Shown: one piece after another, positions 1 to 35,387 of the stretch | Numbering within the stretch: the first letter of the stretch is position 1 | How the letters are laid out: the number at the start of each line of letters is the position of its first letter | Assembly: GCA_963663165.1 (NCBI GenBank) | Contig: OY760175.1 | Coordinates: 3,840,001-3,904,000 of the forward strand | DNA from: an uncultured Desulfospira sp. | GTDB taxonomy: Bacteria > Desulfobacterota > Desulfobacteria > Desulfobacterales > Desulfobacteraceae | Length of the DNA stretch: 64,000 nucleotides | Reading direction: 5' to 3' | Translations under genes and position numbers: made by a program | Notes under the pieces: model-generated | The model's database searches: none | What the model saw: only the letters and a program-made list of their open reading frames with translations | What the model was told of the DNA's origin: nothing

Positions 1-142
1 GCCCATTTTATAACCCCTGCGCGCTATGCCAAATTTCTTAAGTTAATGGCATTGACCCCCCATTTGATACCGATGATGGACGAACGGTGACGGCCTGATA
101 GCCTTCAGTCTTAAACAACCTTCAGCCTTTCCTGAAAACAAC

Positions 143-181
143 TGCGGGCCGATCCGGATGATACATCCGATTCGGCCCGCA
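143..181 (-). terminator. Stem-loop downstream of dctM, probable terminator
   Basis: Imperfect inverted repeat TGCGGGCCGATCCGGATG / CATCCGATTCGGCCCGCA just past the dctM stop. Confidence 0.45.
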
Positions 182-226
182 GCAAGATCAAACCGCTAAT
201 GGCTAATAGCTAACAGCTTTTCCCCA

Positions 227-1537
227 TCACAACGCATGCTCAGGAAGCCATATCACGATGTCCGGGAAGAGCAGCATCAGGATAATTACCGACACGTCAA
301 TGATGATAAAGGGCAGCGTGGCCTTATAAATGGTCGCCATGGTGATGTTTTCCGGCACCACGCCTTTCATGACAAAGAGCAGGAATCCGAACGGCGGGCT
401 TTCCATGGCCACTTCCAGGTTCACCAGCATGATCAGGGCGAACCAGATTTCATTGAATCCCAGGGCCTGGACCATGGGCATGAAGATGGGCAGGGTGATG
501 AGCATGATGGAAACCTGCTCCATAAACATGCCAAGGATAAGGATGACCCCCTGCATGGCGATCATCAGTACCAGGGGCGGCAGGGGAAGTGAGGTAACAA
601 CTTCCACCATGCTCGAGGTGGCGCCGGAGTATGCCAGGATCTGGCTGAAGGCCAGGGAGCCGGTGACGATCAAAAACATCATCACCGTGATTTTCATTGT
701 CCCGGCAAGGGATTTCTTGACCAGGTCCATGTTGAGCCGCCCATAGCAGGCAGACAGGATAAAGGTGGACAGGGCACCCATGGCGGCAGATTCCGTCGGA
801 GTGGCAATGCCAAGGAAAATCAGGCCGATGACCGAAAAAATAACCACACTTAACGGCAGGATGTACTTAACTGTCACCCGCATCTTTTCTTTAAAGGAAA
901 CCGGCTCCGGTGTGTAGGAAGGCGCCATCTCGGGCTGAATGATACACCGGCCGACAATGTAGCCAATATAAAGGACCGCCAGCAGCAGTCCGGGCATGAT
1001 CCCGCCGATGAGCATCTTGCCAACGGACACATTGGCTATGGCCGCCAGAATAACGGCTAGGGCACTGGGCGGTATGATCATGGCCAGGGCCCCGCACATG
1101 CAGGAGCCAATGGAAATACAGGGATGATACCCGCGTTTTTCCATATCCGGAATCATGATGGACCCCAGCATGGCCGTGGTCCCGATACTGGACCCGCTCA
1201 AACAGGAAAACATGGTGCCCGATGCCAGGGCCAGCACCCCCAGACGTCCGGGCACCCGGCCCAGCCATTTATCCACAACGTCTATGGCCTTTAAGGCCAG
1301 CTGCGAGTGAAACAGCACCTCCCCCATGATGACAAACAGCGGCACCGGCAGCAGGGAAAAGGTCGACACTGAACTGAAGATACTGTCGGCTAGCTGATAA
1401 AATCCGACTACCCCGTCCCAGTAAAAATAGGCCCCGACCAGATTGACCACCAGAAAGCAGAACGCCACAGGCATGCCCGTAACCAGCAATAACATTAGCC
1501 CGCCGATAATCAGCGTTAACGCAGTATACCATTCCAT
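227..1537 (-). CDS. dctM: TRAP transporter large permease
   Basis: Polytopic membrane protein with LLPVPLF, IIPPS, ATPTESAA and SPPFG motifs; start moved to MEWY (ATG 1537), adjacent to the dctQ stop. Confidence 0.93.
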   Translation of the reverse strand: MEWYTALTLIIGGLMLLLVTGMPVAFCFLVVNLVGAYFYWDGVVGFYQLADSIFSSVSTFSLLPVPLFVIMGEVLFHSQLALKAIDVVDKWLGRVPGRLGVLALASGTMFSCLSGSSIGTTAMLGSIMIPDMEKRGYHPCISIGSCMCGALAMIIPPSALAVILAAIANVSVGKMLIGGIMPGLLLAVLYIGYIVGRCIIQPEMAPSYTPEPVSFKEKMRVTVKYILPLSVVIFSVIGLIFLGIATPTESAAMGALSTFILSACYGRLNMDLVKKSLAGTMKITVMMFLIVTGSLAFSQILAYSGATSSMVEVVTSLPLPPLVLMIAMQGVILILGMFMEQVSIMLITLPIFMPMVQALGFNEIWFALIMLVNLEVAMESPPFGFLLFVMKGVVPENITMATIYKATLPFIIIDVSVIILMLLFPDIVIWLPEHAL

Positions 1538-1538
1538 A

Positions 1539-2102
1539 TCACATAGCCTCCGTTTCTGATGATGAGAAGGAAGTCCCCTGTTCGTCCTCGTCTGATTGAC
1601 CATGCTTTGAGCCCCACAGCTCGTTATAAAACTGCCGGAAGGCTTCAATGCAAAGGAAAAAACTGCCAAAGGGAATCACCCAGACCACCGACCATTTCGG
1701 AAGGGTCAGCATTTTGATCATAACGATATCACGCTGGAACAAATCCCATGTGGCGCCGCAGGTTGAAAGAAAGAGAACCAAAATGGCAATGGCCGCCACA
1801 AAAGATGCAAATATTTTGAATTTGCGGGTGATATGGGTAGGGCAAAAGAAAAACAGGATATCCACATTAACATGCCCTTTTTCCCTTAAAAGCCAAGGAC
1901 TTCCCAGAAAGGTAAGATAAACCAGCAGATACTCACACACCTCCATGGCCCATCCTGTGGGATTACGAAAAAGGTAGCGCATTACAACATCATAACAAAT
2001 TAAAAGCATCATAAAGAGTAATATGGCACCGGACACAACGGCCATTGCGTTGAGTATGCCATCGAACCATCGTCCGGACCTGTTCAGCAGTGTCGTCATC
2101 AT
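1539..2102 (-). CDS. dctQ: TRAP transporter small permease
   Basis: Four TM helices, DVVMRY...W..E...GHVNVD pattern, lies between dctP and dctM. Confidence 0.92.
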   Translation of the reverse strand: MMTTLLNRSGRWFDGILNAMAVVSGAILLFMMLLICYDVVMRYLFRNPTGWAMEVCEYLLVYLTFLGSPWLLREKGHVNVDILFFFCPTHITRKFKIFASFVAAIAILVLFLSTCGATWDLFQRDIVMIKMLTLPKWSVVWVIPFGSFFLCIEAFRQFYNELWGSKHGQSDEDEQGTSFSSSETEAM

Positions 2103-2227
2103 TACCTTCCATTTTCTTTCTTGTTGGGGGATATTCCGGCTGCCTCGCTTAGGGGTTGCCTAAAGGGACCGGCAGCCGGAGCTTAAACCTTACTTAACGT
2201 TTACTTATTTGCTTATTGTTAACTTCC

Positions 2228-3250
2228 TTATTTCTTCAATGGTTTTGAAATCAATTCTTTGAGCTTGGCGCCGCCCTCAGGGGCTTCTTTAATCACCGTG
2301 GCCCAGGTTTCATCATAGGCCATGTTGCTGTATACTTCAGCTTCTTCAGGTGACAGATGAACTTCCTGAACACCGGCCGCCTTCATAATTTCCCAGGCAT
2401 GTTCCTTTTCACGCAGAACCCGGACCGTATCCACCCCCTCAAAGACTTCCACACAATGTTCAAGTATTTCCTGAAGGTCTTTGGGCAGGCTGTTATACTT
2501 GGTCAGGTTGACGAGCAAAGCGTTTTCCAGCTGGAACACGCCGGGCAAAATTTTATACTTGGTCACCTCGTGCCATCCCCAGTCGGGAATCTCAAAATCC
2601 GAGGTCCACATATACCCGTCCACAACGCCCCGCTGCATGGCCGTGTAAACATCCGTGGGCGGAATGATGATGGGCTTGGCACCCAATTTTTTGATAAACG
2701 GGATGTAAAGGGGCATGGCCCGGATTTTCAGGCCTTTGAAATCCTCAAGTTTTTCTACTTTCTTAGAGGTGTAGATGTTAAAGTCAATAACGGACTGAAT
2801 GGTGCCGATGTACTTTGCATTGATCTTTTCCTGACAAATTTTATCCCAGATGTCATGGACCCCTGTCAGCCGTTCCTCCCAGGCCGCCAGCCGGGAAAGG
2901 CCTTTTGCCTGAAGTTCGGGCGCAAAGGCTTTAAGATAAGCAAAGGGCGTATGCAGAATCATGTCGATGGTGCCCCGCCGGACCGCCTCGCCCTGGTCAA
3001 ATGACTTGACCACTTCCGGACCGCCCACATAATTGATTTTCAACCGTCCGTCGGACTGTTTTTCAATCATCTTGATCAGATCGGGCAGGGCCCGGTTGAC
3101 CATGGCGGTTTTGGGAAAGGCCGTCACCGCCTTGAGCGTAATTGTGTCTGAGGCCATAGAAGCCCCCGGTGCGGACAACATCGCACCCATTACCATTAGA
3201 AGAGCTGCAGCAGGAAGCCAAATCCAGGAATTTCTCATTTTCATGTCCAT
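2228..3250 (-). CDS. dctP: TRAP substrate-binding protein
   Basis: Signal peptide, DFKGLKIR and VYTAMQRGVVDG motifs. Confidence 0.92.
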   Translation of the reverse strand: MDMKMRNSWIWLPAAALLMVMGAMLSAPGASMASDTITLKAVTAFPKTAMVNRALPDLIKMIEKQSDGRLKINYVGGPEVVKSFDQGEAVRRGTIDMILHTPFAYLKAFAPELQAKGLSRLAAWEERLTGVHDIWDKICQEKINAKYIGTIQSVIDFNIYTSKKVEKLEDFKGLKIRAMPLYIPFIKKLGAKPIIIPPTDVYTAMQRGVVDGYMWTSDFEIPDWGWHEVTKYKILPGVFQLENALLVNLTKYNSLPKDLQEILEHCVEVFEGVDTVRVLREKEHAWEIMKAAGVQEVHLSPEEAEVYSNMAYDETWATVIKEAPEGGAKLKELISKPLKK

Positions 3251-3494
3251 TCTCCTTTTCAGTGTTTATGGTTTGGGTTGGCATTAAGACGGATCAAGCA
3301 CAGCTGAATCCGTTTCCATTTACATTTTGACTCAACACCTGTCTTTCAAAAAAAAATGCAATCCTTACAAATTAAGAGATTGCTTGGGGTTGCAATTTTT
3401 TTGCGCCTTGCATCTCGAGCTGCTTTACATCCAAAATTGGTGGGGCCGGTCACATTTTCCCGGCCCCGGTTTTATTCATGTTGGCCAGTAATGG

Positions 3495-4328
3495 TTACTT
3501 GGCCAATACAATGGTTCCCATGTTTCTATCAACATCGGTTTTGATATCAATGGTCTGGGTTTTATAGCCGTCATATTCAACATTGATCTGAAATGTTTTG
3601 CCGGCTTCAAGGCCCTTAAATTCAAAATCACCCAGAAAATCCGTTGTGCTGGTCATTTCGGTGCCGTCGCCTTTAAGGGTTACCTTAACCCCCTGGCTGC
3701 AAACATCCTGCTGATCTTCAAGCAGGACTTCGCCCATGACCACCCGCTTGGGAACATTCCGGTAAACCACGTTGGAATGCAATCCAAATGCGGGATTCAG
3801 TTGCTCGGTGGGGGCCGATGCAATGTCCTTTGAAAGCGCGCTGTTGGGATCATCAAGGTCACCAAACAAGATGGCGCCGCTCGGACATGCCTCAGCGCAT
3901 CTGGGCTCTTTTGCGCCCTTTTCGAGTAAATGGACACAAAAGCTGCATTTCTGGGGAACATCCAGAACCGCATTCCAGGAAATGGCCCGGTAGGGGCAAT
4001 AGGTCATGATGTCTCTGTTGCCTTTTGCCTTTTCAGGGTCAATCACGACGATACCGTCATCCCGGCGGTAAACCTCTCCGTCTACGGCCTTGGCCACACA
4101 AGGAGCATCCTTACACTGAAGGCATGGCATGGCAATGTAATCCACCTTAACCTTGGGGCAGGTTCCCATTTCTTTTTCCGTGACCTTCATAAAGGGTTTG
4201 CTGTCATGGGGAATGGCTAACGAAAAGGGCGGATAATCGTTTCCGGAATATTCGTCCTTGCATGCCAGAAAGCAATTATAGCAGCCATTGCATTTGTTTA
4301 CATCTATTCTCATTCCATATTTGGCCAT
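3495..4328 (-). CDS. Fe-S beta subunit, pyrogallol transhydroxylase BthL-like (three [4Fe-4S] clusters)
   Basis: CxxCxxCxxxC motifs; APCVAKA...IDPEKAKG segment lacks the Cys set of a fourth cluster, as in BthL; C-terminal beta-sandwich domain (TDFLGDFEF); start at MAKYG. Confidence 0.88.
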   Translation of the reverse strand: MAKYGMRIDVNKCNGCYNCFLACKDEYSGNDYPPFSLAIPHDSKPFMKVTEKEMGTCPKVKVDYIAMPCLQCKDAPCVAKAVDGEVYRRDDGIVVIDPEKAKGNRDIMTYCPYRAISWNAVLDVPQKCSFCVHLLEKGAKEPRCAEACPSGAILFGDLDDPNSALSKDIASAPTEQLNPAFGLHSNVVYRNVPKRVVMGEVLLEDQQDVCSQGVKVTLKGDGTEMTSTTDFLGDFEFKGLEAGKTFQINVEYDGYKTQTIDIKTDVDRNMGTIVLAK

Positions 4329-25952: not shown

Positions 25953-27491
25953 CCCTACAACGTGACTTATATTTAATATTATTATTTTAGTTAACATAAT
26001 CTGCTATACTCCGCAATATAACTTTTATATAGGAGGTAGAGTATGTTGCCTGAAATCCGAAAAGATGAGTACCTTTATCCTATCCCCAAATTTGATATCT
26101 GTGAAGGGGATGTAAAAAATTTTTTCAATGAACTTAAAGGGTTTCATGAAATTTTCCACGACTGTTTTCATCGTTCTGAGTCAAGGGAACATTTTTTCAG
26201 GTATATGGCTGGGCAATTTAGTGACCTGGAAAGAAAATCAATTGAACCCATTGCTCTGGCCGTTGAAGATGGCAATGTTAGGGCAATGCAGCGTTTTATT
26301 AGCGATGCTGAATGGAATGGCGCCAATATTATGGCCAAGTATCGTAATCTCATAAATGAAGATATGGGGACACCTGATGGCGTTCTTATTTTTGATGAAA
26401 GCGGTTTTGTTAAAAAAGGCAATGAATCCATCGGTGTTGCCAGACAATATTGCGGGAATGTCGGCAAGGTTGAAAACAGCCAAGTGGGTGTTTTTGCAGC
26501 CTATGCTTCCCCAAAGGGCTACGGATTGATTGATAAACGACTGTTTATACCTGAACTATGGTTTAAAGACGATCACAAACAGGGAAGAAAAAAGTGCAAA
26601 CTGCCTGAGTCTGTTTCGTTTAAGACAAAACCGCAATTGGCTTCCGAAATGTTGAACGAACTCGCAGAAGAAGCCATCGTGCCGGTTAAGTATGTTACCG
26701 CGGATTCATTGTATGGCAACAGTGATGATTTTATTGAAGCTGTTGAGCAACATCCGGATTTGACCTATTTTGTAGAAGTTCCTTGTAATACTCAATGCTG
26801 GTTTAACAGACCTATTACCGTTGAAAAAACTTACAAATACAAAGGAGAGCAGCGTACAAAAATAGTTGTTGAAAAATCCTCCAAAAAGCCGGTCGATGTC
26901 AAAACTATCGCAAAAAATATAAATGATTTTTTCTGGTACCGCCGGAAAGTATCTGAAGGTACCAAAGGACCTATTGAATATGAATTTACCAAAAGACGAG
27001 TGGTACTTTCCAAAGGAAACACGCCTACAAAATCGGTGTGGCTGATCATGAGGCGAACCCTTGGGAAATCCCCGGATTATAAATTTTTCCTTAGCAATGC
27101 CGGGGTTAGTGCCAGATTAAAGCTTTTTGTATGGCTTAGTGGTATTCGTTGGGCAATTGAACAGTGTTTTGAGGAAACCAAGACTGAACTCGGCATGGAT
27201 CATTATGAGGTCCGTAAATACCCAGGCTGGAATCATCATATAATAACGTGCATGCTTGCACATTTTTTCTTGTGGCACCTGAAAATCAGGATGGGAAAAA
27301 AAAGCTCCATCTATTACAGTGTCGCAGCTTAGAATACTAATGGAGGTGGTTTTGCCATTGAGACCTTGTCATTTTCATACCGTTATACAATCGGTTTTGT
27401 ATTACCAAAGGCGCAATCACGCTGCATATCTATCGCATCGAAAAAGGAGGCTTCTTGATAGAAAGAATACACACTAAGTCACGTTGTAGGG
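25953..27491 (+). mobile_element. IS701-family insertion sequence, copy 1 (1539 bp)
   Basis: Perfect 17-bp TIR CCCTACAACGTGACTTA / TAAGTCACGTTGTAGGG; CTAT direct repeats at 25949-25952 and 27492-27495. Confidence 0.93.
26043..27332 (+). CDS. IS701-family transposase, with likely frameshift extension to 27477
   Basis: RKSIEPIA, IFDESGFVKKG..SIGVARQYCG..GKVENSQVGV, VTADSLYG, RWAIEQCFEETKTELGMDHYEVR. Confidence 0.93.
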   Translation: MLPEIRKDEYLYPIPKFDICEGDVKNFFNELKGFHEIFHDCFHRSESREHFFRYMAGQFSDLERKSIEPIALAVEDGNVRAMQRFISDAEWNGANIMAKYRNLINEDMGTPDGVLIFDESGFVKKGNESIGVARQYCGNVGKVENSQVGVFAAYASPKGYGLIDKRLFIPELWFKDDHKQGRKKCKLPESVSFKTKPQLASEMLNELAEEAIVPVKYVTADSLYGNSDDFIEAVEQHPDLTYFVEVPCNTQCWFNRPITVEKTYKYKGEQRTKIVVEKSSKKPVDVKTIAKNINDFFWYRRKVSEGTKGPIEYEFTKRRVVLSKGNTPTKSVWLIMRRTLGKSPDYKFFLSNAGVSARLKLFVWLSGIRWAIEQCFEETKTELGMDHYEVRKYPGWNHHIITCMLAHFFLWHLKIRMGKKSSIYYSVAA

Positions 27492-27679: not shown

Positions 27680-27712
27680 AAAAGCCCCTGAGTAAAGAGC
27701 TACTCAGGGGCT
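27680..27712 (-). terminator. Intrinsic terminator of the interrupted cold-shock gene
   Basis: AGCCCCTGAGTA / TACTCAGGGGCT stem with a U-tract on the minus strand, 27 bp after the csp stop at 27740. Confidence 0.75.
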
Positions 27713-27739
27713 ATAATGTCACTGGATTAAAATGGTATA

Positions 27740-27755
27740 TTAAATCACGGTCACA
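27740..27755 (-). pseudogene. Displaced 3' end of the cold-shock gene (V-T-V-I-stop)
   Basis: Minus strand GTG ACC GTG ATT TAA; joins in frame with GCA AAT at the other side of the transposon. Confidence 0.85.
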
Positions 27756-27893
27756 TGAGAATGGTCACAAAAAATCATGGAAAAATTGAAGATAATTTGC
27801 AAGATATGTCAGGTTTGAGGCAGAAGTTCCCCTGTTTATCTCGCAAATAATCGTGAAACTCCTGCCTCCCCACCCAATAACAGGGCAGGAGAT

Positions 27894-28481
27894 ATGCTAT
27901 CAGAAGTTCTGAAAAACGAAAGTTTTTTTTGGGATCTATACAAAATAGATCTGGCAACAGCCGAACGTTATAGACAGATGAAGTGCCCCCACTGCCAGGG
28001 ACCGTTGTATTATGCCAATTATCCGCGCAAACCCAGGGGGGAGCCTGAAGGGTTGTCTGAAGAATGTTTTTTACAATTCAGTTTATGTTGCGGAAGGGAA
28101 GGCTGTCGACGTCGTTTGATCCCGCCAACCTGCCGTTTCCTTGGTAAAAACATTTACTGGTATGCGGCCATTCTGACGATTGTGTCCGACTGGCAGAACC
28201 AATCTGTAGGTATCACGATGTCCAGGTTTGCTGAAACAATCGGTATCTCCCGCAACACCCTTAGCCGCTGGGTCAGCTTATTCAAAGAAATATTTCCAAC
28301 AAGCTCTCAATGGAAGAAAATCCGGGGCCGAGTACCTGCAAGCGTAAAAAATGATCGTCTTCCAGCAAGTTTGGTCAACTTCTATCTGCATCAACAGGCG
28401 TCCATCAAAAAAACGTTGATCTCCTGTTTGTCATTCTTGTCTCAAGGCAGTGAAATATCACAAAAAATAAGGGCCGGGTAA
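27894..28481 (+). CDS. Transposon orf1: Zn-finger plus HTH protein
   Basis: CPHCQG...CCGREGCRRR and HTH-like IGISRNTLSRW. Confidence 0.75.
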   Translation: MLSEVLKNESFFWDLYKIDLATAERYRQMKCPHCQGPLYYANYPRKPRGEPEGLSEECFLQFSLCCGREGCRRRLIPPTCRFLGKNIYWYAAILTIVSDWQNQSVGITMSRFAETIGISRNTLSRWVSLFKEIFPTSSQWKKIRGRVPASVKNDRLPASLVNFYLHQQASIKKTLISCLSFLSQGSEISQKIRAG

Positions 28482-28596
28482 TCTCACGCAGAAGATGGGC
28501 GTGGCCTTGGGCGCTCAACTGTTCTATCAAAGGGGCCGGGATTTTTATCAGCATTTCGCTGAAAATTTTAACTCAAAATTGAAAGGACCCCGGCCT

Positions 28597-30042
28597 ATGA
28601 ACAGTAAAAACCAAAGTCCGGTTGATAACTGGGCTTTGTTTCGCTTCTCAGTCGTTGGCGGTTTGCTGGCAAATCCGCCGGCCAAAGGTGAGCTGCGCAA
28701 GGAACTGGAAAAGCTTTCCTATCAGATTTACACCCATCCCATCACGAACGAATCAACGGTATTTCATTTTTCAACTATTGAAAGCTGGTATTACAAGGCA
28801 AAAAATGCCCAGGACCCCATTATTGCTTTAGGGCGGAAAGTTCGTTCTGACTATGGCGGTTCAATTGTATTCACACCTGAACTGATCCGGATGCTGGGCA
28901 GACAATACCGGACTTATCCGAACTGGAGCTACAAACTGCACGCAGATAATTTCGCAGCAGAACTCCAGGAAAAGGAGGCTTCAGTATCGGTACCATCCTA
29001 TGCCAGTGTCCGGCGGCGGATGATCGAAAGGGGGTGGACCAGGAAGCCCTCAGCAAAGAAAAAACAGACAGCGGGTATGAAAATTGCCGCAAAGCGGTTC
29101 GAAAGCCATGAAATCCGAGGATACGAAGCAGAATATGTTCACAGCCTGTGGCATCTGGATTTTCATGAAGGCAGTCTGCGGGTGGTGGATAACAACGGTA
29201 ACTGGTATACGCCCAAAGCCTTATGTATTCTTGACGACCACTCCCGCCTGTGCTGCCACATCCAATGGTATTCAGGAGAAACCACCCAGGATTTGATTCA
29301 TGGATTGACCCAGGCCTTTTTCAAAAGGGGGCTTCCCAGGGCACTGATGACGGACAACGGATCTGCCATGACCTCCCATGAGTTTTGCAACGGGCTTAAG
29401 AAAACAGGGATACTTCATGAAACGACATTGCCCTACAGCCCTTATCAAAACGGTAAGCAGGAAGCCTTTTGGGGCACCCTTGAAGGCAGATTGATGGCCA
29501 TGCTGACCCGGGTGGACCCTCTGACACTGGAATATCTCAATCACCGCAGTCAGGCTTGGGTCGAGATGGAATATAACAAAACCAGGCATAGTGACATCGG
29601 CACATCTCCTGTTCAACGCATGCTTGAAGGCAAAGATGTTTCCCGGCCGGCACCGGATGAAGAACAATTACGTTTCGCCTTTACAGTTTGCGAAGTCAGA
29701 AATCAGCGCAAGTCTGACGGTACCGTGTCCATCAACGGGGTAAGATTTGAGATCCCTTCCCGGTTTCACCATATCCCTCGGTTACATGTCTGCTTTGCCA
29801 ATTGGGATAAATCCATGGCCTGGCTCATGGACCAGAGAACCGGCAAACAGATTGCGCCGATCTACCCCCAAGACAAAATCAAAAATGCTTCAGGAAAACG
29901 AAAGATCAAGTCGAGACCTGAACATACCATTCTACCGGATGAAACATTGAAAGAATCCGAGCCTGCATTATTAAGAAAACTGATGGCCGAGTATGCCCAA
30001 AGCGGCATGCCCCCAGCCTATCTGCCCAAAGGAGAATCATGA
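28597..30042 (+). CDS. DDE transposase with rve/Mu-like core and Mu-type C-terminal domain
   Basis: WHLDF, MTDNGS, QNGKQE with DD(35)E spacing; RKSDGTVSINGVRFEIP; GAAAGGA RBS before ATG 28597. Confidence 0.9.
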   Translation: MNSKNQSPVDNWALFRFSVVGGLLANPPAKGELRKELEKLSYQIYTHPITNESTVFHFSTIESWYYKAKNAQDPIIALGRKVRSDYGGSIVFTPELIRMLGRQYRTYPNWSYKLHADNFAAELQEKEASVSVPSYASVRRRMIERGWTRKPSAKKKQTAGMKIAAKRFESHEIRGYEAEYVHSLWHLDFHEGSLRVVDNNGNWYTPKALCILDDHSRLCCHIQWYSGETTQDLIHGLTQAFFKRGLPRALMTDNGSAMTSHEFCNGLKKTGILHETTLPYSPYQNGKQEAFWGTLEGRLMAMLTRVDPLTLEYLNHRSQAWVEMEYNKTRHSDIGTSPVQRMLEGKDVSRPAPDEEQLRFAFTVCEVRNQRKSDGTVSINGVRFEIPSRFHHIPRLHVCFANWDKSMAWLMDQRTGKQIAPIYPQDKIKNASGKRKIKSRPEHTILPDETLKESEPALLRKLMAEYAQSGMPPAYLPKGES

Positions 30043-30866
30043 ACAACAAACAGCTTCTGGCTTATTACGGCCTTAAATGGAATCCTTTTTTGTCCAATAT
30101 CCCCGTGGAGGCTTTATGGCATCCGCCATTGATGAACAGTTTTATTTTTCGTCTTGAGAATATGACCCTGAACGGGGGCTTTGCTTTGATCAGCGGGGAC
30201 CCTGGCCTTGGCAAATCCAAGGCGTTGCAGATGATTGCCCAAAAGTTCGGTAAACTTGACGAGGTAGTTGTCGGGGTAATGGAACGTCCCCAAAGCAGTG
30301 TCGGAGACTTTTACCGGGAAATGGGAGTTTTGTTTGGTGTCAATTTAAGCCCTGCCAACCGGTATGGCGGGTTCAAGGATCTTCGGGAGCGCTGGAGGCA
30401 TCATGTAAAAACCACCTTGTTCCGGCCCATCCTGCTCATAGATGAAGCCCAGGAGATGCTGACCGGATGCTTAAATGAACTGCGTTTGTTGAACAGCGCG
30501 GACTTTGACTCCCAAAACCTGTTGACCACCGTGATTTGCGGCGATGACCGGCTCCCGGAACGGTTCAGATCAAGATCCCTGGTATCGCTGGGAAGCCGGA
30601 TGCAGTTCCGGTTGACGCTGCTTCCCTATGTCCGGGATGACCTGCTGGATTACATGGATCACAGCCTGAACCAGGCCGGCGCCCCGCACTTAATGACGAA
30701 AACTCTGATCAGGACCCTTGCAGACCATTGCGCCGGCAACCTGCGGGTTCTTAACAATATGGCCGCAGACCTGCTGACTGCGGGGATTGAAAAAGAACTC
30801 AATCAATTGGACGAAAAGCTTTTTATGGAAGTCTATTCCAGACAGCCGCCCAATAAAAAATCATAG
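30039..30866 (+). CDS. ExeA-like AAA+ ATPase, transposition helper
   Basis: Walker A GDPGLGKS, Walker B LLIDEAQ, GNLRVLNN; overlaps the transposase stop (ATGA). Confidence 0.88.
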   Translation: MNNKQLLAYYGLKWNPFLSNIPVEALWHPPLMNSFIFRLENMTLNGGFALISGDPGLGKSKALQMIAQKFGKLDEVVVGVMERPQSSVGDFYREMGVLFGVNLSPANRYGGFKDLRERWRHHVKTTLFRPILLIDEAQEMLTGCLNELRLLNSADFDSQNLLTTVICGDDRLPERFRSRSLVSLGSRMQFRLTLLPYVRDDLLDYMDHSLNQAGAPHLMTKTLIRTLADHCAGNLRVLNNMAADLLTAGIEKELNQLDEKLFMEVYSRQPPNKKS

Positions 30867-30875
30867 GAGAACAAT

Positions 30876-31058
30876 ATGGGTATTTATGATGATCCGGACA
30901 TGAAACTGGAAGAAATCACACAGGAATTGGAACATTTTATCCTGGATATGGTCCTTGCCGGACTTGAAAGCTTGAATATGGAATATCGGGCCTTCAGGCG
31001 ATTCCAGAAACAAAGGCTCACGGAAAAGAACCGTCATAAAGAACACGAGCCGTTTTGA
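30876..31058 (+). CDS. Small helical hypothetical protein within the transposon
   Basis: 60 aa, AGGAG RBS, in operon with the ATPase. Confidence 0.55.
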   Translation: MGIYDDPDMKLEEITQELEHFILDMVLAGLESLNMEYRAFRRFQKQRLTEKNRHKEHEPF

Positions 31059-31095
31059 ACGTACGCCCGGACTCCAAAGGTCCGGGCCTGCCTCA

Positions 31096-31884
31096 ATGGA
31101 AAAAATACTTTGGAAAATCGGCAATTATTTTAAGCACCGCTTCAGCCTGGCAGTTCTTGATGAAATTAAGGGCCGGTGGCCCGTTCTCCCCTCTTGTAAA
31201 AACATCCCTTATCTTAAAGCTGAAAATGCCGGAGGAAGGCACATCCTGATCAGACCTGATCCTGTTATTCAGCCTTATTATTTTCTTGCCGACGATTTAA
31301 ACATTGACCTGCTTATCCGGCATCATCAATCCATATCAAACCGCTTTAAACCAGGCAGGATGGTTATAGAAACATCTCCCGGCAATTATCAAATTTGGAT
31401 TCACAGTGACCGTCCGTTAAGCCTTCCCGAAAAAAAGTATTGGTTGGAAAACATGCACAGTGATCCCGGCGCCGACCCGAAAAACAGGTGGGGCAGATGC
31501 CCCGGGTTCAGGAACAGAAAAGCAAAACACAGAACGCCTTCAGGACAATACCCTTTGGCAAAGCTATTATGGGTGGACTGGAAATGCCAGGCTATTGTCC
31601 CTGAAATAGAATTATCCTCCCAACCTCAAGAAGTCTTTTCCCATCAACCCCGGGGGGGAGTGTGCCATAACGGTAATATTTCCCGCTCCCTCTATGATAA
31701 GGGTGACGAATCTGCCACTGATTTTGCATATGCTCTGGCCCTCTATAGAAGAGGTTTCTCACGAATGGAAATTTACAATCGCATTATCAATGAAAGGCAG
31801 GATTGGATTAATCATGCGGGTGAACGAAAAAAAACACAGTATCTGATCAGGACATTACAGAAAGCTGAAAAAATTATCAGTTAA
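31096..31884 (+). CDS. RepB'-type (RSF1010-like AEP) DNA primase
   Basis: LADDL, VIETSPGNYQIW, DPGAD...RCPGFRN, C-terminal DESATDFAYA...YLIRT helical bundle. Confidence 0.82.
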   Translation: MEKILWKIGNYFKHRFSLAVLDEIKGRWPVLPSCKNIPYLKAENAGGRHILIRPDPVIQPYYFLADDLNIDLLIRHHQSISNRFKPGRMVIETSPGNYQIWIHSDRPLSLPEKKYWLENMHSDPGADPKNRWGRCPGFRNRKAKHRTPSGQYPLAKLLWVDWKCQAIVPEIELSSQPQEVFSHQPRGGVCHNGNISRSLYDKGDESATDFAYALALYRRGFSRMEIYNRIINERQDWINHAGERKKTQYLIRTLQKAEKIIS

Positions 31885-31915
31885 AATCGGGCTCTCTTGG
31901 CCTCCGGGAAAGCCC

Positions 31916-32152
31916 TTATTTACCATGAAACGTTGTCCATGAATTATCGTGATTGCTCTCAACATTTGCAGCTGACGGTCCTTTGGGACCCTGTTCAATG
32001 TCGAATGACACTTGATCACCCTCATTGAGAGTTTTAAAACCAGTTGCATTGATGCCTGAATGATGGACAAATACATCTTTGCCACCACCTGCATGTTCAA
32101 TAAATCCAAAACCTTTTGACTCGTTAAACCATTTTACGATACCGTTTGCCAT
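31916..32152 (-). CDS. csp: Cold-shock protein interrupted by the transposon, now with a chimeric C-terminus
   Basis: [31 protein letters not shown]; the last 14 residues ([14 protein letters not shown]) are read from the transposon end. Confidence 0.92.
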
Positions 32153-33193: not shown

Positions 33194-33848
33194 AAACAAA
33201 CCTGGTGCTAAGTTAGAAGGAATTGAATAGGATTCGCTTATGTCTGACATCCGGGTTCGCTATACCACATTGGAAGTTGGGAATATTGATATTCATATCC
33301 GTATGCTGAGGGATTTGCTTCAGTTCAGGGATAATGACGGTATTGCTAGAAGCCTTGGGATTTCTTCTGCCGCCTGGCCAATGTTCGGTGTGATCTGGCC
33401 TTCAGGTATGGTTCTGGCAAATCTGATGTTGGATTACAATGCCAAAGGGAAACGCGTTTTGGAGGTGGGGTGTGGAATCGCTTTGGCCAGTTTGGTTCTG
33501 AATGAGCGGTTAGCTGATATTACCGCAACGGACCATCACCCAGAAACAGGGGGTTTCCTCTTTTATAATGTAAGTCTGAATAACGGGAAAAACATTCCCT
33601 TTGTGCAAACTGGATGGGCTTATTCCGATATCGATCAACTTGGGACATTTGATCTTATTATCGGATCTGATCTCCTATACGAGGAACAGAATATTGAGCT
33701 TTTATCCACATTTATAGATAAGCATAGTCGACGTCAGTGCGAAGTGCTTATGGTTGATCCTGGCCGAGGATTGCATGCAAAATTTAGCAAAAAGATGGTG
33801 GGCCTTGGGTATTCGCATTCTCAAAAAAAACCAAACAATACAGACTAT

Positions 33849-35387
33849 CCCTACAACGTGACTTATATTTAATATTATTGTTTTAGGTAACATAATCTGC
33901 TACACTCCGCAATATAACTTTTATATAGGAGGTAGAGTATGTTGCCTGAAATCCGAAAAGATGAGTACCTTTATCCTATCCCCAAATTTGATATCTGTGA
34001 AGGGGATGTAAAAAATTTTTTCAATGAACTTAAAGGGTTTCATGAAATTTTCCACGACTGTTTTCATCGTTCTGAGTCAAGGGAACATTTTTTCAGGTAT
34101 ATGGCTGGGCAATTTAGTGACCTGGAAAGAAAATCAATTGAACCCATTGCTCTGGCCGTTGAAGATGGCAATGTTAGGGCAATGCAGCGTTTTATTAGCG
34201 ATGCTGAATGGAATGACGCCAATATTATGGCCAAGTATCGTAATCTCATAAATGAAGATATGGGGACACCTGATGGCGTTCTTATTTTTGATGAAAGCGG
34301 TTTTGTTAAAAAAGGCAATGAATCCATCGGTGTTGCCAGACAATATTGCGGGAATGTCGGCAAGGTTGAAAACAGCCAAGTGGGTGTTTTTGCAGCCTAT
34401 GCTTCCCCAAAGGGCTACGGATTGATTGATAAACGACTGTTTATACCTGAACTATGGTTTAAAGACGATCACAAACAGGGAAGAAAAAAGTGCAAACTGC
34501 CTGAGTCTGTTTCGTTTAAGACAAAACCGCAATTGGCTTCCGAAATGTTGAACGAACTCGCAGAAGAAGCCATCGTGCCGTTTAAGTATGTTACCGCGGA
34601 TTCATTGTATGGCAACAGTGATGATTTTATTGAAGCTGTTGAGCAACATCCGGATTTGACCTATTTTGTAGAAGTTCCTTGTAATACTCAATGCTGGTTT
34701 AACAGACCTATTACCGTTGAAAAAACTTACAAATACAAAGGAGAGCAGCGTACAAAAATAGTTGTTGAAAAATCCTCCAAAAAGCCGGTCGATGTCAAAA
34801 CTATCGCAAAAAATATAAATGATTTTTTCTGGTACCGCCGGAAAGTATCTGAAGGTACCAAAGGACCTATTGAATATGAATTTACCAAAAGACGAGTGGT
34901 ACTTTCCAAAGGAAACACGCCTACAAAATCGGTGTGGCTGATCATGAGGCGAACCCTTGGGAAATCCCCGGATTATAAATTTTTCCTTAGCAATGCCGGG
35001 GTTAGTGCCAGATTAAAGCTTTTTGTATGGCTTAGTGGTATTCGTTGGGCAATTGAACAGTGTTTTGAGGAAACCAAGACTGAACTCGGCATGGATCATT
35101 ATGAGGTCCGTAAATACCCAGGCTGGAATCATCATATAATAACGTGCATGCTTGCACATTTTTTCTTGTGGCACCTGAAAATCAGGATGGGAAAAAAAAG
35201 CTCCATCCATTACAGTGTCGCAGCTTAGAATACTAATGGAGGTGGTTTTGCCATTGAGACCTTGTCGTTTTCATACCGTTATGCAATCGGTTTTGTATTA
35301 CCAAAGGCGCAATCACGCTGCATATCTATCGCATCGAAAAAGGAGGCTTCTTGATAGAAAGAATACGCACTAAGTTACGTTGTAGGG
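33849..35387 (+). mobile_element. IS701-family insertion sequence, copy 2 (1539 bp)
   Basis: TIRs 33849-33865 and 35371-35387 (one mismatch); CTAT duplications at 33845-33848 and 35388-35391. Confidence 0.93.
33939..35228 (+). CDS. IS701-family transposase
   Basis: Differs from copy 1 at only three residues (G/D, V/F, Y/H). Confidence 0.93.
   Translation: MLPEIRKDEYLYPIPKFDICEGDVKNFFNELKGFHEIFHDCFHRSESREHFFRYMAGQFSDLERKSIEPIALAVEDGNVRAMQRFISDAEWNDANIMAKYRNLINEDMGTPDGVLIFDESGFVKKGNESIGVARQYCGNVGKVENSQVGVFAAYASPKGYGLIDKRLFIPELWFKDDHKQGRKKCKLPESVSFKTKPQLASEMLNELAEEAIVPFKYVTADSLYGNSDDFIEAVEQHPDLTYFVEVPCNTQCWFNRPITVEKTYKYKGEQRTKIVVEKSSKKPVDVKTIAKNINDFFWYRRKVSEGTKGPIEYEFTKRRVVLSKGNTPTKSVWLIMRRTLGKSPDYKFFLSNAGVSARLKLFVWLSGIRWAIEQCFEETKTELGMDHYEVRKYPGWNHHIITCMLAHFFLWHLKIRMGKKSSIHYSVAA

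Follow-up and report, generated by a model that had tools for sequence, protein, structure and literature searches.

A stretch of 64,000 nucleotides from an uncultured Desulfospira sp. (GenBank assembly GCA_963663165.1, contig OY760175.1, positions 3,840,001 to 3,904,000), here called the window, carries a compact transposon that encodes its own primase. According to the open reading frame (ORF) listing and a reading of its ends, the transposon occupies positions 27756-31961, a length of 4,206 bp, and its ends, TGAGA...TCTCA, lie within a 29-nt imperfect terminal inverted repeat (IR) whose arms are 72% complementary. The five ORFs are co-oriented and tightly packed (Table 1). They encode a zinc-ribbon-like protein with a helix-turn-helix (HTH), a DDE transposase, an AAA+ ATPase, a small protein and a RepB'-type primase. 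These are the domains given in the preliminary description, which had been made from the letters of the DNA alone, and the HTH of the first ORF is weak. That description had also remarked on the lack of resolvase, helicase and conjugation genes, and indeed none of the five ORFs matched such a family in Pfam.

Table 1. Positions in the window of the transposon's features and of the interrupted csp gene
Feature	Position	Strand	Basis or remark
csp 3' remnant (last codons and stop, 27740-27755) and terminator hairpin (27683-27712)	27683..27755	-	
Left target duplication ACA	27753..27755	.	empty-site joint skips 4,209 = 4,206 + 3
Left terminal inverted repeat	27756..27784	+	starts TGAGA, contains TCATGGA; boundary same in 11/11 copies
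Left non-coding region	27791..27891	+	two inverted repeats, ~27791-27851 and 27859-27891, the latter directly ahead of ORF1
ORF1, 195 aa, Cys-rich, zinc-ribbon-like plus HTH	27894..28481	+	weak HTH_3/HTH_23
DDE transposase, 481 aa	28597..30042	+	rve (Pfam); start is the Met used by homologues; longest ORF from 28495
AAA+ ATPase, 275 aa	30039..30866	+	AAA_22 (Pfam); start overlaps transposase stop
Small ORF, 60 aa, no family	30876..31058	+	no Pfam or NCBIfam match
RepB'-type primase, 262 aa, catalytic and helix-bundle domains	31096..31884	+	PF16793, PF22448
Right terminal inverted repeat	31933..31961	-	ends TCTCA; another TCATGGT 14 bases inside
Right target duplication ACA	31962..31964	.	read at the end; empty-site joint
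csp 5' part, codons 1-64	31962..32152	-	CSD domain, E 1e-28

The insertion site is the 3' end of the cold-shock gene csp. When the two flanks were joined in a script, a csp of 67 aa ending in ...NVTVI was restored, and two csp paralogues in the same genome (88% identical) are also 67 aa long and have the same ending. At present the 5' part of csp is fused by read-through into the element, giving an ORF of 78 aa (31916-32152). One contig each in the public runs X1 and X6 joins position 27752 to position 31962 and skips 4,209 bases, which indicates that the empty allele exists in nature. These contigs differ from the window at a few other flank positions, so that they point to a related strain with an empty site and do not prove excision. 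The best-matching public runs may include the window's own source sample. The exact boundaries could thus be recovered through the restoration of csp, as had been proposed, and the empty-site contigs agree with them.

We found 11 copies of the element in its own 6.74-Mb genome, all of them chromosomal and 98-100% identical, with the same first and last base in every copy. They start at positions 1253998, 1419658, 1531839, 1904029, 2584992, 3867757, 4276671, 4929063, 5560456, 5603622 and 6740861 of the genome's contig (G000:C1). All five ORFs are intact in each of the nine full-length copies checked. Relative to the window copy, these nine sort into three subfamilies (0, 38 and 74 differences), and there is no variation within a subfamily, an identity that marks recent bursts. 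The target duplications of the 11 copies measure 3, 4, 6, 3, 5, 6, 6, 5, 5, 5 and 5 bp. Across the family, duplications of 3-7 bp were read at many different insertion sites (the tally excludes the Isosphaeraceae and Planctomycetaceae groups, which were not cleanly readable at the boundaries used). The 3-bp ACA duplication given in the preliminary description therefore holds for the window copy, but not as a rule for the family. The ends that it had given are the same in all 11 copies. Of its sub-terminal motif TCATGG(A/T) there is one copy near the left end and there are two near the right end, but two of these three copies simply belong to the terminal repeat; because the 7-mer is common in the window (39 observed against 23.8 expected), it weighs little alone.

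Taken together, the 11 copies, identical ends, intact ORFs and empty site confirm, far beyond chance, that the window element is a real, complete, mobile and recently active transposon, and that the primase moves along with it.

Two of the copies are unusual. One (4929063-4939242) is itself broken up by two further insertions, at about positions 219 and 3985-3990 of the element. Another (1-4041 plus 6740861-6741034) runs across the two ends of the genome's one contig, which overlap by 11 bases, and is a leftover of assembly circularising, not a variant. Ten of the 11 copies lie on the plus strand. By cumulative GC skew the origin lies at about 4.1 Mb and the terminus at about 0.75 Mb, and a link between insertion orientation and replication direction was ruled out, since six copies are co-directional with replication and five are head-on. 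The plus-strand bias may reflect chance or selection against inverted repeats. We also noted two genes for a 429-aa DDE_5 transposase in the window (26043-27332 and 33939-35228, both on the plus strand), which differ at 3 of 429 residues and bracket the element, csp and a 210-aa ORF (33240-33872). The pair might make up a composite-transposon-like structure or be no more than two insertion sequence (IS) insertions.

Core genes and relation to Tn6049

In a protein search against plasmids, the transposase matched a protein on the megaplasmids of Cupriavidus metallidurans CH34 (47% identity) that is annotated as 'IS481 family transposase', a label due to similarity of the catalytic core only. The corresponding region of plasmid pMOL30 encodes, in order, a 181-aa 'transposase', the DDE protein, an 'AAA family ATPase' and a 71-aa hypothetical protein, and belongs to the transposon Tn6049. 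Identity to Tn6049 is 34% for ORF1 (E 1e-24), 47% for the transposase (E 9e-139) and 50% for the ATPase (E 3e-85), and the small ORF has no detectable similarity to its Tn6049 counterpart. The pMOL30 copy is 3,517 bp long, with TG...CA ends as published, a 6-bp duplication and no primase. Tn6049 has been described as a 3.5-kb element that inserts into genes and occurs in many copies per genome (12 in strain CH34), with an ATPase gene named gspA (PMC2864759). On the Pseudomonas aeruginosa plasmid pHS87a, 12-bp imperfect inverted repeats and 4-bp direct repeats were reported for it (PMC4739549), and its transposition module 'could not be categorized' (PMC6210171). 

Judged by its sequence, the window element is a member of the Tn6049 family. 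Their genes follow one another in the same sequence (small Cys-rich/HTH protein, DDE transposase, AAA_22 'gspA' ATPase, small ORF). Both have TG...CA ends and an imperfect inverted repeat that is short, and both make short target duplications that vary in length. They differ in the end sequence (TGTGCATAAGCA in Tn6049, TGAGAATGGTCAC in the window element) and in the host: Tn6049 is found in Betaproteobacteria, whereas the named relatives of the window element are mostly metagenome-assembled genomes (MAGs) of Desulfobacterales. The family is spread over several phyla. With its 4,206 bp and 262-aa primase, compared with about 3.5 kb and no extra genes, the window element represents a variant of this family. 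The preliminary description had spoken of a poorly described family. Its core in fact has a name, although the module is uncategorised in print (PMC6210171). No experimental study of the Tn6049 mechanism was found in the available text of the literature that mentions this transposon, in line with that description, which knew of no experimental characterization.

We next consider the core proteins one by one. In an alignment of 24 ORF1 sequences, C34, C65, C66 and C71 are invariant and C31 is nearly so. The structural model of ORF1 is confident (predicted local distance difference test, pLDDT, 89), but it had no specific fold match; the best Foldseek E-value was 0.48 and the best VIA-align wide Z-score was 4.5. 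A TniQ-like role for ORF1 is conceivable; there was no Pfam TniQ match, and both structure searches gave generic HTH proteins alone. ORF1 is predicted to be a DNA-binding accessory protein, and its gene opens the core set of the Tn6049 family.

More than 7,000 homologues of the transposase were found at E <= 0.001, and homologues are 478-502 aa long. A profile of 24 family transposases matches TnsB of ShCAST (E 7e-8) over the N-terminal DNA-binding part; HTH_32 was found in 13 of these 24 proteins and a weak Mu-transpos_C in 7. The transposase also matches the PHROGs family phrog_310 'transposase' (E 5e-33). Its scores were 105.4 bits against the NCBIfam IS481 model NF033577 (cut-off 224), 38 bits against the IS21 model NF033546 (cut-off 160) and 72 bits against the IS3 model. 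By these scores, the transposase is not a member of IS481, IS3 or IS21.

The ATPase model (pLDDT 87) gave Foldseek matches to ORC/Cdc6, to MuB (8xvb; E 4e-11, template modelling score, TM, 0.71) and to TnsC of ShCAST (7m99/7plh; TM 0.73-0.75), and the sequence matches phrog_296 'DNA transposition protein' (E 4e-14). In Pfam it matched AAA_22 and not IstB_IS21 (PF01695). We therefore describe the transposase as predicted to be TnsB/MuA-like and the ATPase as MuB/TnsC-like, terms that denote likeness of fold and domains and not a placement in the TnsB tree. The small ORF is kept at the same position in relatives, with identities of 61% in L072, 54-68% in L091-L098 and 34-39% in L027, L100 and L101, and is 33% identical to the 80-aa ORF of primase-less relatives. 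PADLOC gave no significant match for any of the five ORFs.

The RepB'-type primase and its place in related elements

The product of the last gene scored above the cut-offs for both Pfam domains of RepB' (58 bits for PF16793, cut-off 24.3; 34.6 bits for PF22448, cut-off 26.1), and matches the RSF1010 RepB' structures 3H20/3H25 (E 4e-12). Residues D66, D67, D123 and R134 align with D77, D78, D134 and R145 of RepB', which are required for primer synthesis (PMC8567376), and all four are unchanged across 23 aligned primase homologues. The ratio of nonsynonymous to synonymous substitution rates (dN/dS), calculated against the L072 copy, is 0.107 for the primase, 0.106 for the transposase and 0.076 for the ATPase. 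These comparisons indicate that the primase is a true RepB' homologue with intact catalytic residues that is held under purifying selection (dN/dS ~0.1). RepB' stems from IncQ plasmids, which replicate by strand displacement, and starts each strand of such a plasmid in a leading-strand mode (PMC8567376). The RSF1010 protein shares both domains and the four catalytic positions with the window primase, but it is 323 aa long, against 262 aa, and belongs to a plasmid origin region, whereas the window primase is carried by a transposon. Its partners RepA and RepC are both missing from the window element, and no hairpins such as ssiA/ssiB were identified in the non-coding parts of the element.

We compared 78 related loci from species-representative genomes and 80 metagenome loci, all picked by similarity to the queries. 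ORF1, transposase and ATPase are present in all 78 genome loci wherever the contig allows. The slot after the ATPase holds RepB' in 7 of these loci, an AAA_25 protein directly after the ATPase in 32, a DnaG-type primase (Zn-ribbon plus Toprim) in 2, an 80-aa ORF alone in 14, nothing in 11 and an unfamiliar ORF in 2, and is cut or broken in 10. Some AAA_25 loci also carry a small DnaG-type zinc-finger protein. The AAA_25 slot protein matches the RSF1010 RepA helicase (1G8Y; E 2e-9), so that a RepA-like protein fills the slot in these relatives. Reduced to 43 distinct informative relatives, the counts are AAA_25 22, RepB' 7, DnaG-type 2, nothing 10 and unfamiliar ORF 2; that is, replication proteins of three unrelated folds fill the slot in 31 of 43. 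A tree of the transposases, with 54 distinct rows, unites 22 of the 24 AAA_25 rows in one clade and places the RepB' elements in a 13-row clade with a Shimodaira-Hasegawa-like approximate likelihood ratio test (SH-aLRT) value of 100. The recurrence of replication genes in this slot, together with the purifying selection, provides comparative evidence for a link between the transposon and replication.

Some further observations concern the slot. One Acidobacteriota MAG contains two sister Tn6049-type elements with different slot primases (L042 3349-4170 and L045 7337-8266), one a divergent RepB' type and one a DnaG-type (Zn-ribbon plus Toprim). Two loci (L033 4428-5273 and L076 7367-8194) have a slot ORF of 275-281 aa with no Pfam, PADLOC or PHROG match. 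We also considered a defence role and set it aside, as the primase had no PADLOC match and the DnaG-type slot gene of L041 matched just the primase-like parts of defence-associated reverse transcriptase (DRT) models.

The same primase clade was also found outside the Tn6049 family. The primase has 578 homologues at E <= 0.001, mostly on contigs of 1-5 kb. The 80 metagenome loci came from a scan with the primase alignment, and with the genome loci there were 92 that had a full-length primase match. In these 92, the gene just upstream of the primase is a Tn6049-type ATPase in 41 cases, in 29 an ATPase that belongs to a second, only distantly related family of the rve(+Mu-transpos_C)+AAA_22 kind, and the third of three tandem tyrosine recombinases (recombinase-in-trio) in 11. 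There are also single cases of an IS110 transposase, an IS21 and two unrecognised types, which may be nested insertions, and in seven cases there is nothing recognisable or the contig is cut. The transposase of the second DDE+AAA_22 family is 25-28% identical to that of the window. For both this family and the trio type, wherever two copies were comparable, their similarity stops 73-92 bp past the primase stop, which makes the primase the final gene of these elements as well. It is always co-oriented and always the last gene. The primase tree groups largely by element type, but several switches are needed. Within the Tn6049 type, L091 and L097-L099 have a primase 74-77% identical to that of the window, a transposase of 45-49% and an ATPase of 55-59%, whereas in the L092-L096 group the values are ~80% for the primase and 86-89% for the transposase. 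These identities suggest an exchange of the primase between divergent lineages of the Tn6049 type.

Recombinase-in-trio elements with the primase were observed on contigs of ~4 kb (L142 1038-4761, L133 159-3872, L161 67-3730 and L153 985-4676). Their RepB' primase is 52-54% identical to the window primase, and similarity between copies ends ~75 bp after it. In the phylum of the window's genome, PF16793 was found in 18 of 401 genomes (400 drawn plus the window's own), and most of the matches lie in long ORFs of another kind.

Candidate role of the primase in transposition

No TnsA-like nuclease was found among the five ORFs. Absence of TnsA predicts copying by replication, as for Tn7-like elements (PMC8649781). 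By analogy, a transposase with neither TnsA nor a resolvase would only nick and join 3' ends, and the element would then be copied by replication. On this basis we consider that the window element probably moves by replication-dependent transposition. In the mechanism that we propose, ORF1, transposase, ATPase and small ORF would move the element into many sites. Copying might take place at the donor, where copy-out would yield a circle or tandem whose ends abut, as those of the relative L098 do, or at the target, on a Mu-type strand-transfer fork. Either way, the fork would be built at a DNA branch made by the transposase and not at an origin. The RepB'-type primase, presumably captured from an IncQ-like strand-displacement replicon, would prime the complementary strand on the displaced single strand of the element at this fork. 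Such self-priming would lessen the dependence on the host restart primosome, and would be helpful without being required. Replication-dependent transposition that is helped by self-priming is the best explanation that we can offer, and we place it at an even chance; the priming role of the primase, taken separately, falls a little short of that.

The abutted ends of L098 are relevant to this proposal. In this relative (transposase 49% and primase 74% identical), the contig of 4,428 bp has a terminal overlap of 129 bp, which gives a 4,299-bp circle. At 2268-2330 the right IR, the bases TTTC and the left IR are abutted, and L097 3189-3250 spans the same junction. Copy-out-paste-in elements and IS21 use abutted ends of this kind, as a circle junction or head-to-tail dimer. 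The L098 form could be either of these, and gives a hint at the INTERMEDIATE. There is no sigma-70-like site spanning the L098 junction, and no promoter-like site at the left end of the window element. An apparent abutted junction in L032 was rejected, as it consists of a scaffold gap and a second right end.

Several findings weigh against our proposal. The prototype Tn6049 has no primase. The primase-less elements L016, L017 and L026 nest in the RepB' clade of the transposase tree, as sisters of the RepB'-bearing L028 (SH-aLRT 98), and the tree is most simply read as a loss of the primase in these three. The element of L017 has a length of 3,541 bp and nearly the ends of the window element, its left end being about the same as our left terminal IR. 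One Desulfobacter MAG chromosome carries at least 12 copies of this element, and their duplications measure 3-7 bp. PF16793 had no match in this MAG, whereas the same search finds 11 of 11 in the window's genome. This thriving primase-less lineage implies that the primase is not required for transposition and is accessory. Moreover, the occurrence of the same primase on unrelated elements is also what is expected of a portable cargo cassette, and recombinase-in-trio elements should excise conservatively, with no obvious need for priming.

No recognisable priming site was found either, which speaks against every role of the primase in replication. We folded the left and right non-coding parts of the window element and of L017, and the tails of L144 and L133. 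No ssi-like hairpin travelling with the primase was found in these non-coding parts, and coding DNA was not searched. Folds at the right end were no better than those of shuffled sequences. There is no conserved tail after the primase, the tails being specific to each element type. For the left non-coding region the fold z-score was -1.5 on the plus strand and -2.4 on the minus strand. The two left inverted repeats, one long and imperfect and one CTCCTGCC...GGCAGGAG before ORF1, also occur in the primase-less L017 (4215-4318) and are thus not primase-specific; they may serve as an operator or in the control of ORF1 translation. In addition, the abutted junction was observed in a single metagenome, where it may represent a tandem dimer, and the contigs of four runs contain no end-to-end joint of the window element, an absence that is uninformative because contigs drop rare forms.

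The preliminary description had suggested that the element primes its own transposition, and had named a primase missing from most homologues as a sign of a passenger gene. With RepB' in only 7 of 78 loci the latter is partly the case, yet 'passenger' is a poor fit. As for the former, the slot genes and the selection support a link with replication, but the primase proved unnecessary, and its specific role stays an inference. These points bear on an alternative in which the primase is portable cargo without a role in transposition, which hitch-hikes at the end of several kinds of small transposon common in these sediment bacteria and performs a host service, such as repriming after replication blocks, or a function in conflicts. 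Such cargo would explain the primase-less prototype and many relatives like it, the multiplication of a primase-less derivative in a RepB'-free genome, the presence of the clade on unrelated element types with several switches in its tree, and the exchange between divergent Tn6049-type lineages (L091, L097-L099). However, it is hard to see how chance would place three unrelated replication folds in 31 of 43 slots. The lack of a PADLOC match, a purifying selection equal to that on the transposase, and the constant position of the primase, co-oriented, last and 73-92 bp from the end, also speak against cargo, and we regard this alternative as rather unlikely.

If the element excises as a circle, the primase might instead let the circle replicate briefly as a small episome and so raise the number of donors. 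The circular assembly of L098, with its ends abutted across 4 bp, would fit this idea, as would the origin of RepB' in strand-displacement IncQ plasmids (PMC8567376) and the IncQ-type RepA helicase of relatives. However, neither a RepC-like initiator in the five ORFs nor an iteron array or ssi-like hairpin in the non-coding parts was found. In run X2, the word depth in contigs was ~1,500 for the element and 172 for the flank; contig depth is not copy number, but this ratio of ~9x is roughly what 11 chromosomal copies give. The missing end joint in the four runs is also contrary to the idea, and a scan of a viral-contig collection with the primase alignment gave one irrelevant weak match and no related small circles. 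We therefore consider the episome improbable.

A further alternative is that the primase acts after horizontal transfer, by priming the complementary strand of incoming single-stranded DNA during conjugation or transformation of a carrier replicon. The RSF1010 primase primes the incoming plasmid strand, both domains of the homologous window protein are intact, and a family found in several phyla implies frequent transfer. On the other hand, expression of the gene in the recipient already requires double-stranded DNA, all 11 copies are chromosomal, the element has no transfer genes or oriT-like features, and the relatives that bear a helicase do not fit. This makes such a role highly improbable, and we return to self-primed, replication-dependent transposition as the best explanation.

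If it is correct, its significance may extend beyond this element. Replication genes on small transposons apparently form a wider, undescribed pattern. We tentatively propose, as a possibility more than an expectation, that small transposons with recombinases of at least three unrelated types, those of the Tn6049-type elements, of the second DDE+AAA+ family and of the recombinase-in-trio elements, carry their own means to start replication, and that self-primed replicative transposition is a general strategy, so far undescribed, in which RepB', or a DnaG-type primase or RepA-type helicase in sister lineages, builds a fork at the transposition intermediate. Replication of phage Mu relies on host restart proteins, and it is for Mu alone, through these proteins, that the handover from branch to replication is known in detail. 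The interchangeable primases and helicases in one slot offer a natural genetic handle on this step. In addition, Tn6049, named but uncategorised, gains a place beside the Mu and Tn7 machinery, and a clade of RepB'-type primases that lives on transposons and not on plasmids is flagged. Even if the primase is merely cargo, the annotation of a widespread element, with more than 7,000 transposase homologues, would be useful.

Comparison with known systems

We found no literature on Tn6049 and a primase together, none linking recombinase-in-trio elements with a primase and none on a DDE transposon with its own primase, the last judged partly from abstracts; most subscription journals, ISfinder and TnCentral lay outside the coverage of these searches. 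In the available part of a survey of Tn7 cargo, 'primase' is mentioned solely as part of Toprim.

The core of the window element resembles that of Mu and of Tn7-like elements that lack TnsA, such as the type V-K CRISPR-associated transposons (CASTs), in that the transposase profile matches TnsB of ShCAST and the ATPase folds like MuB/TnsC. Unlike Mu and the Tn7-like elements, it has no recognised TniQ/TnsD or resolvase, is much smaller and carries the primase as its sole cargo. Their duplication is fixed at 5 bp, whereas that of the family described here varies from 3 to 7 bp. IS21 (IstA/IstB) likewise combines a DDE transposase with a separate AAA+ helper and makes variable duplications, and its abutted ends, which serve as a reactive junction, have a parallel in L098. 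However, IS21 has neither ORF1 nor the primase, and the ATPase of the window element is of the AAA_22 and not the IstB_IS21 type. IS481 is a single-gene IS, compared with the five genes of the window element. In Tn552 and Tn5053/Tn402 a cognate resolvase stands beside the transposase-ATPase pair, whereas none of the five ORFs of the window element matched a serine or tyrosine recombinase.

Ties between the movement of an element and a primase or polymerase have been reported for casposons and for the IS excision enhancer (IEE), a PrimPol-helicase (PMC4779613; bioRxiv 10.1101/2023.06.07.543989). Casposons use Cas1 and a family B polymerase, whereas the window element has a small RepB'-type primase in a DDE transposon. 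IEE is encoded in a host island, works in trans on IS3-like elements and favours their loss, whereas the primase described here lies within the transposon itself.

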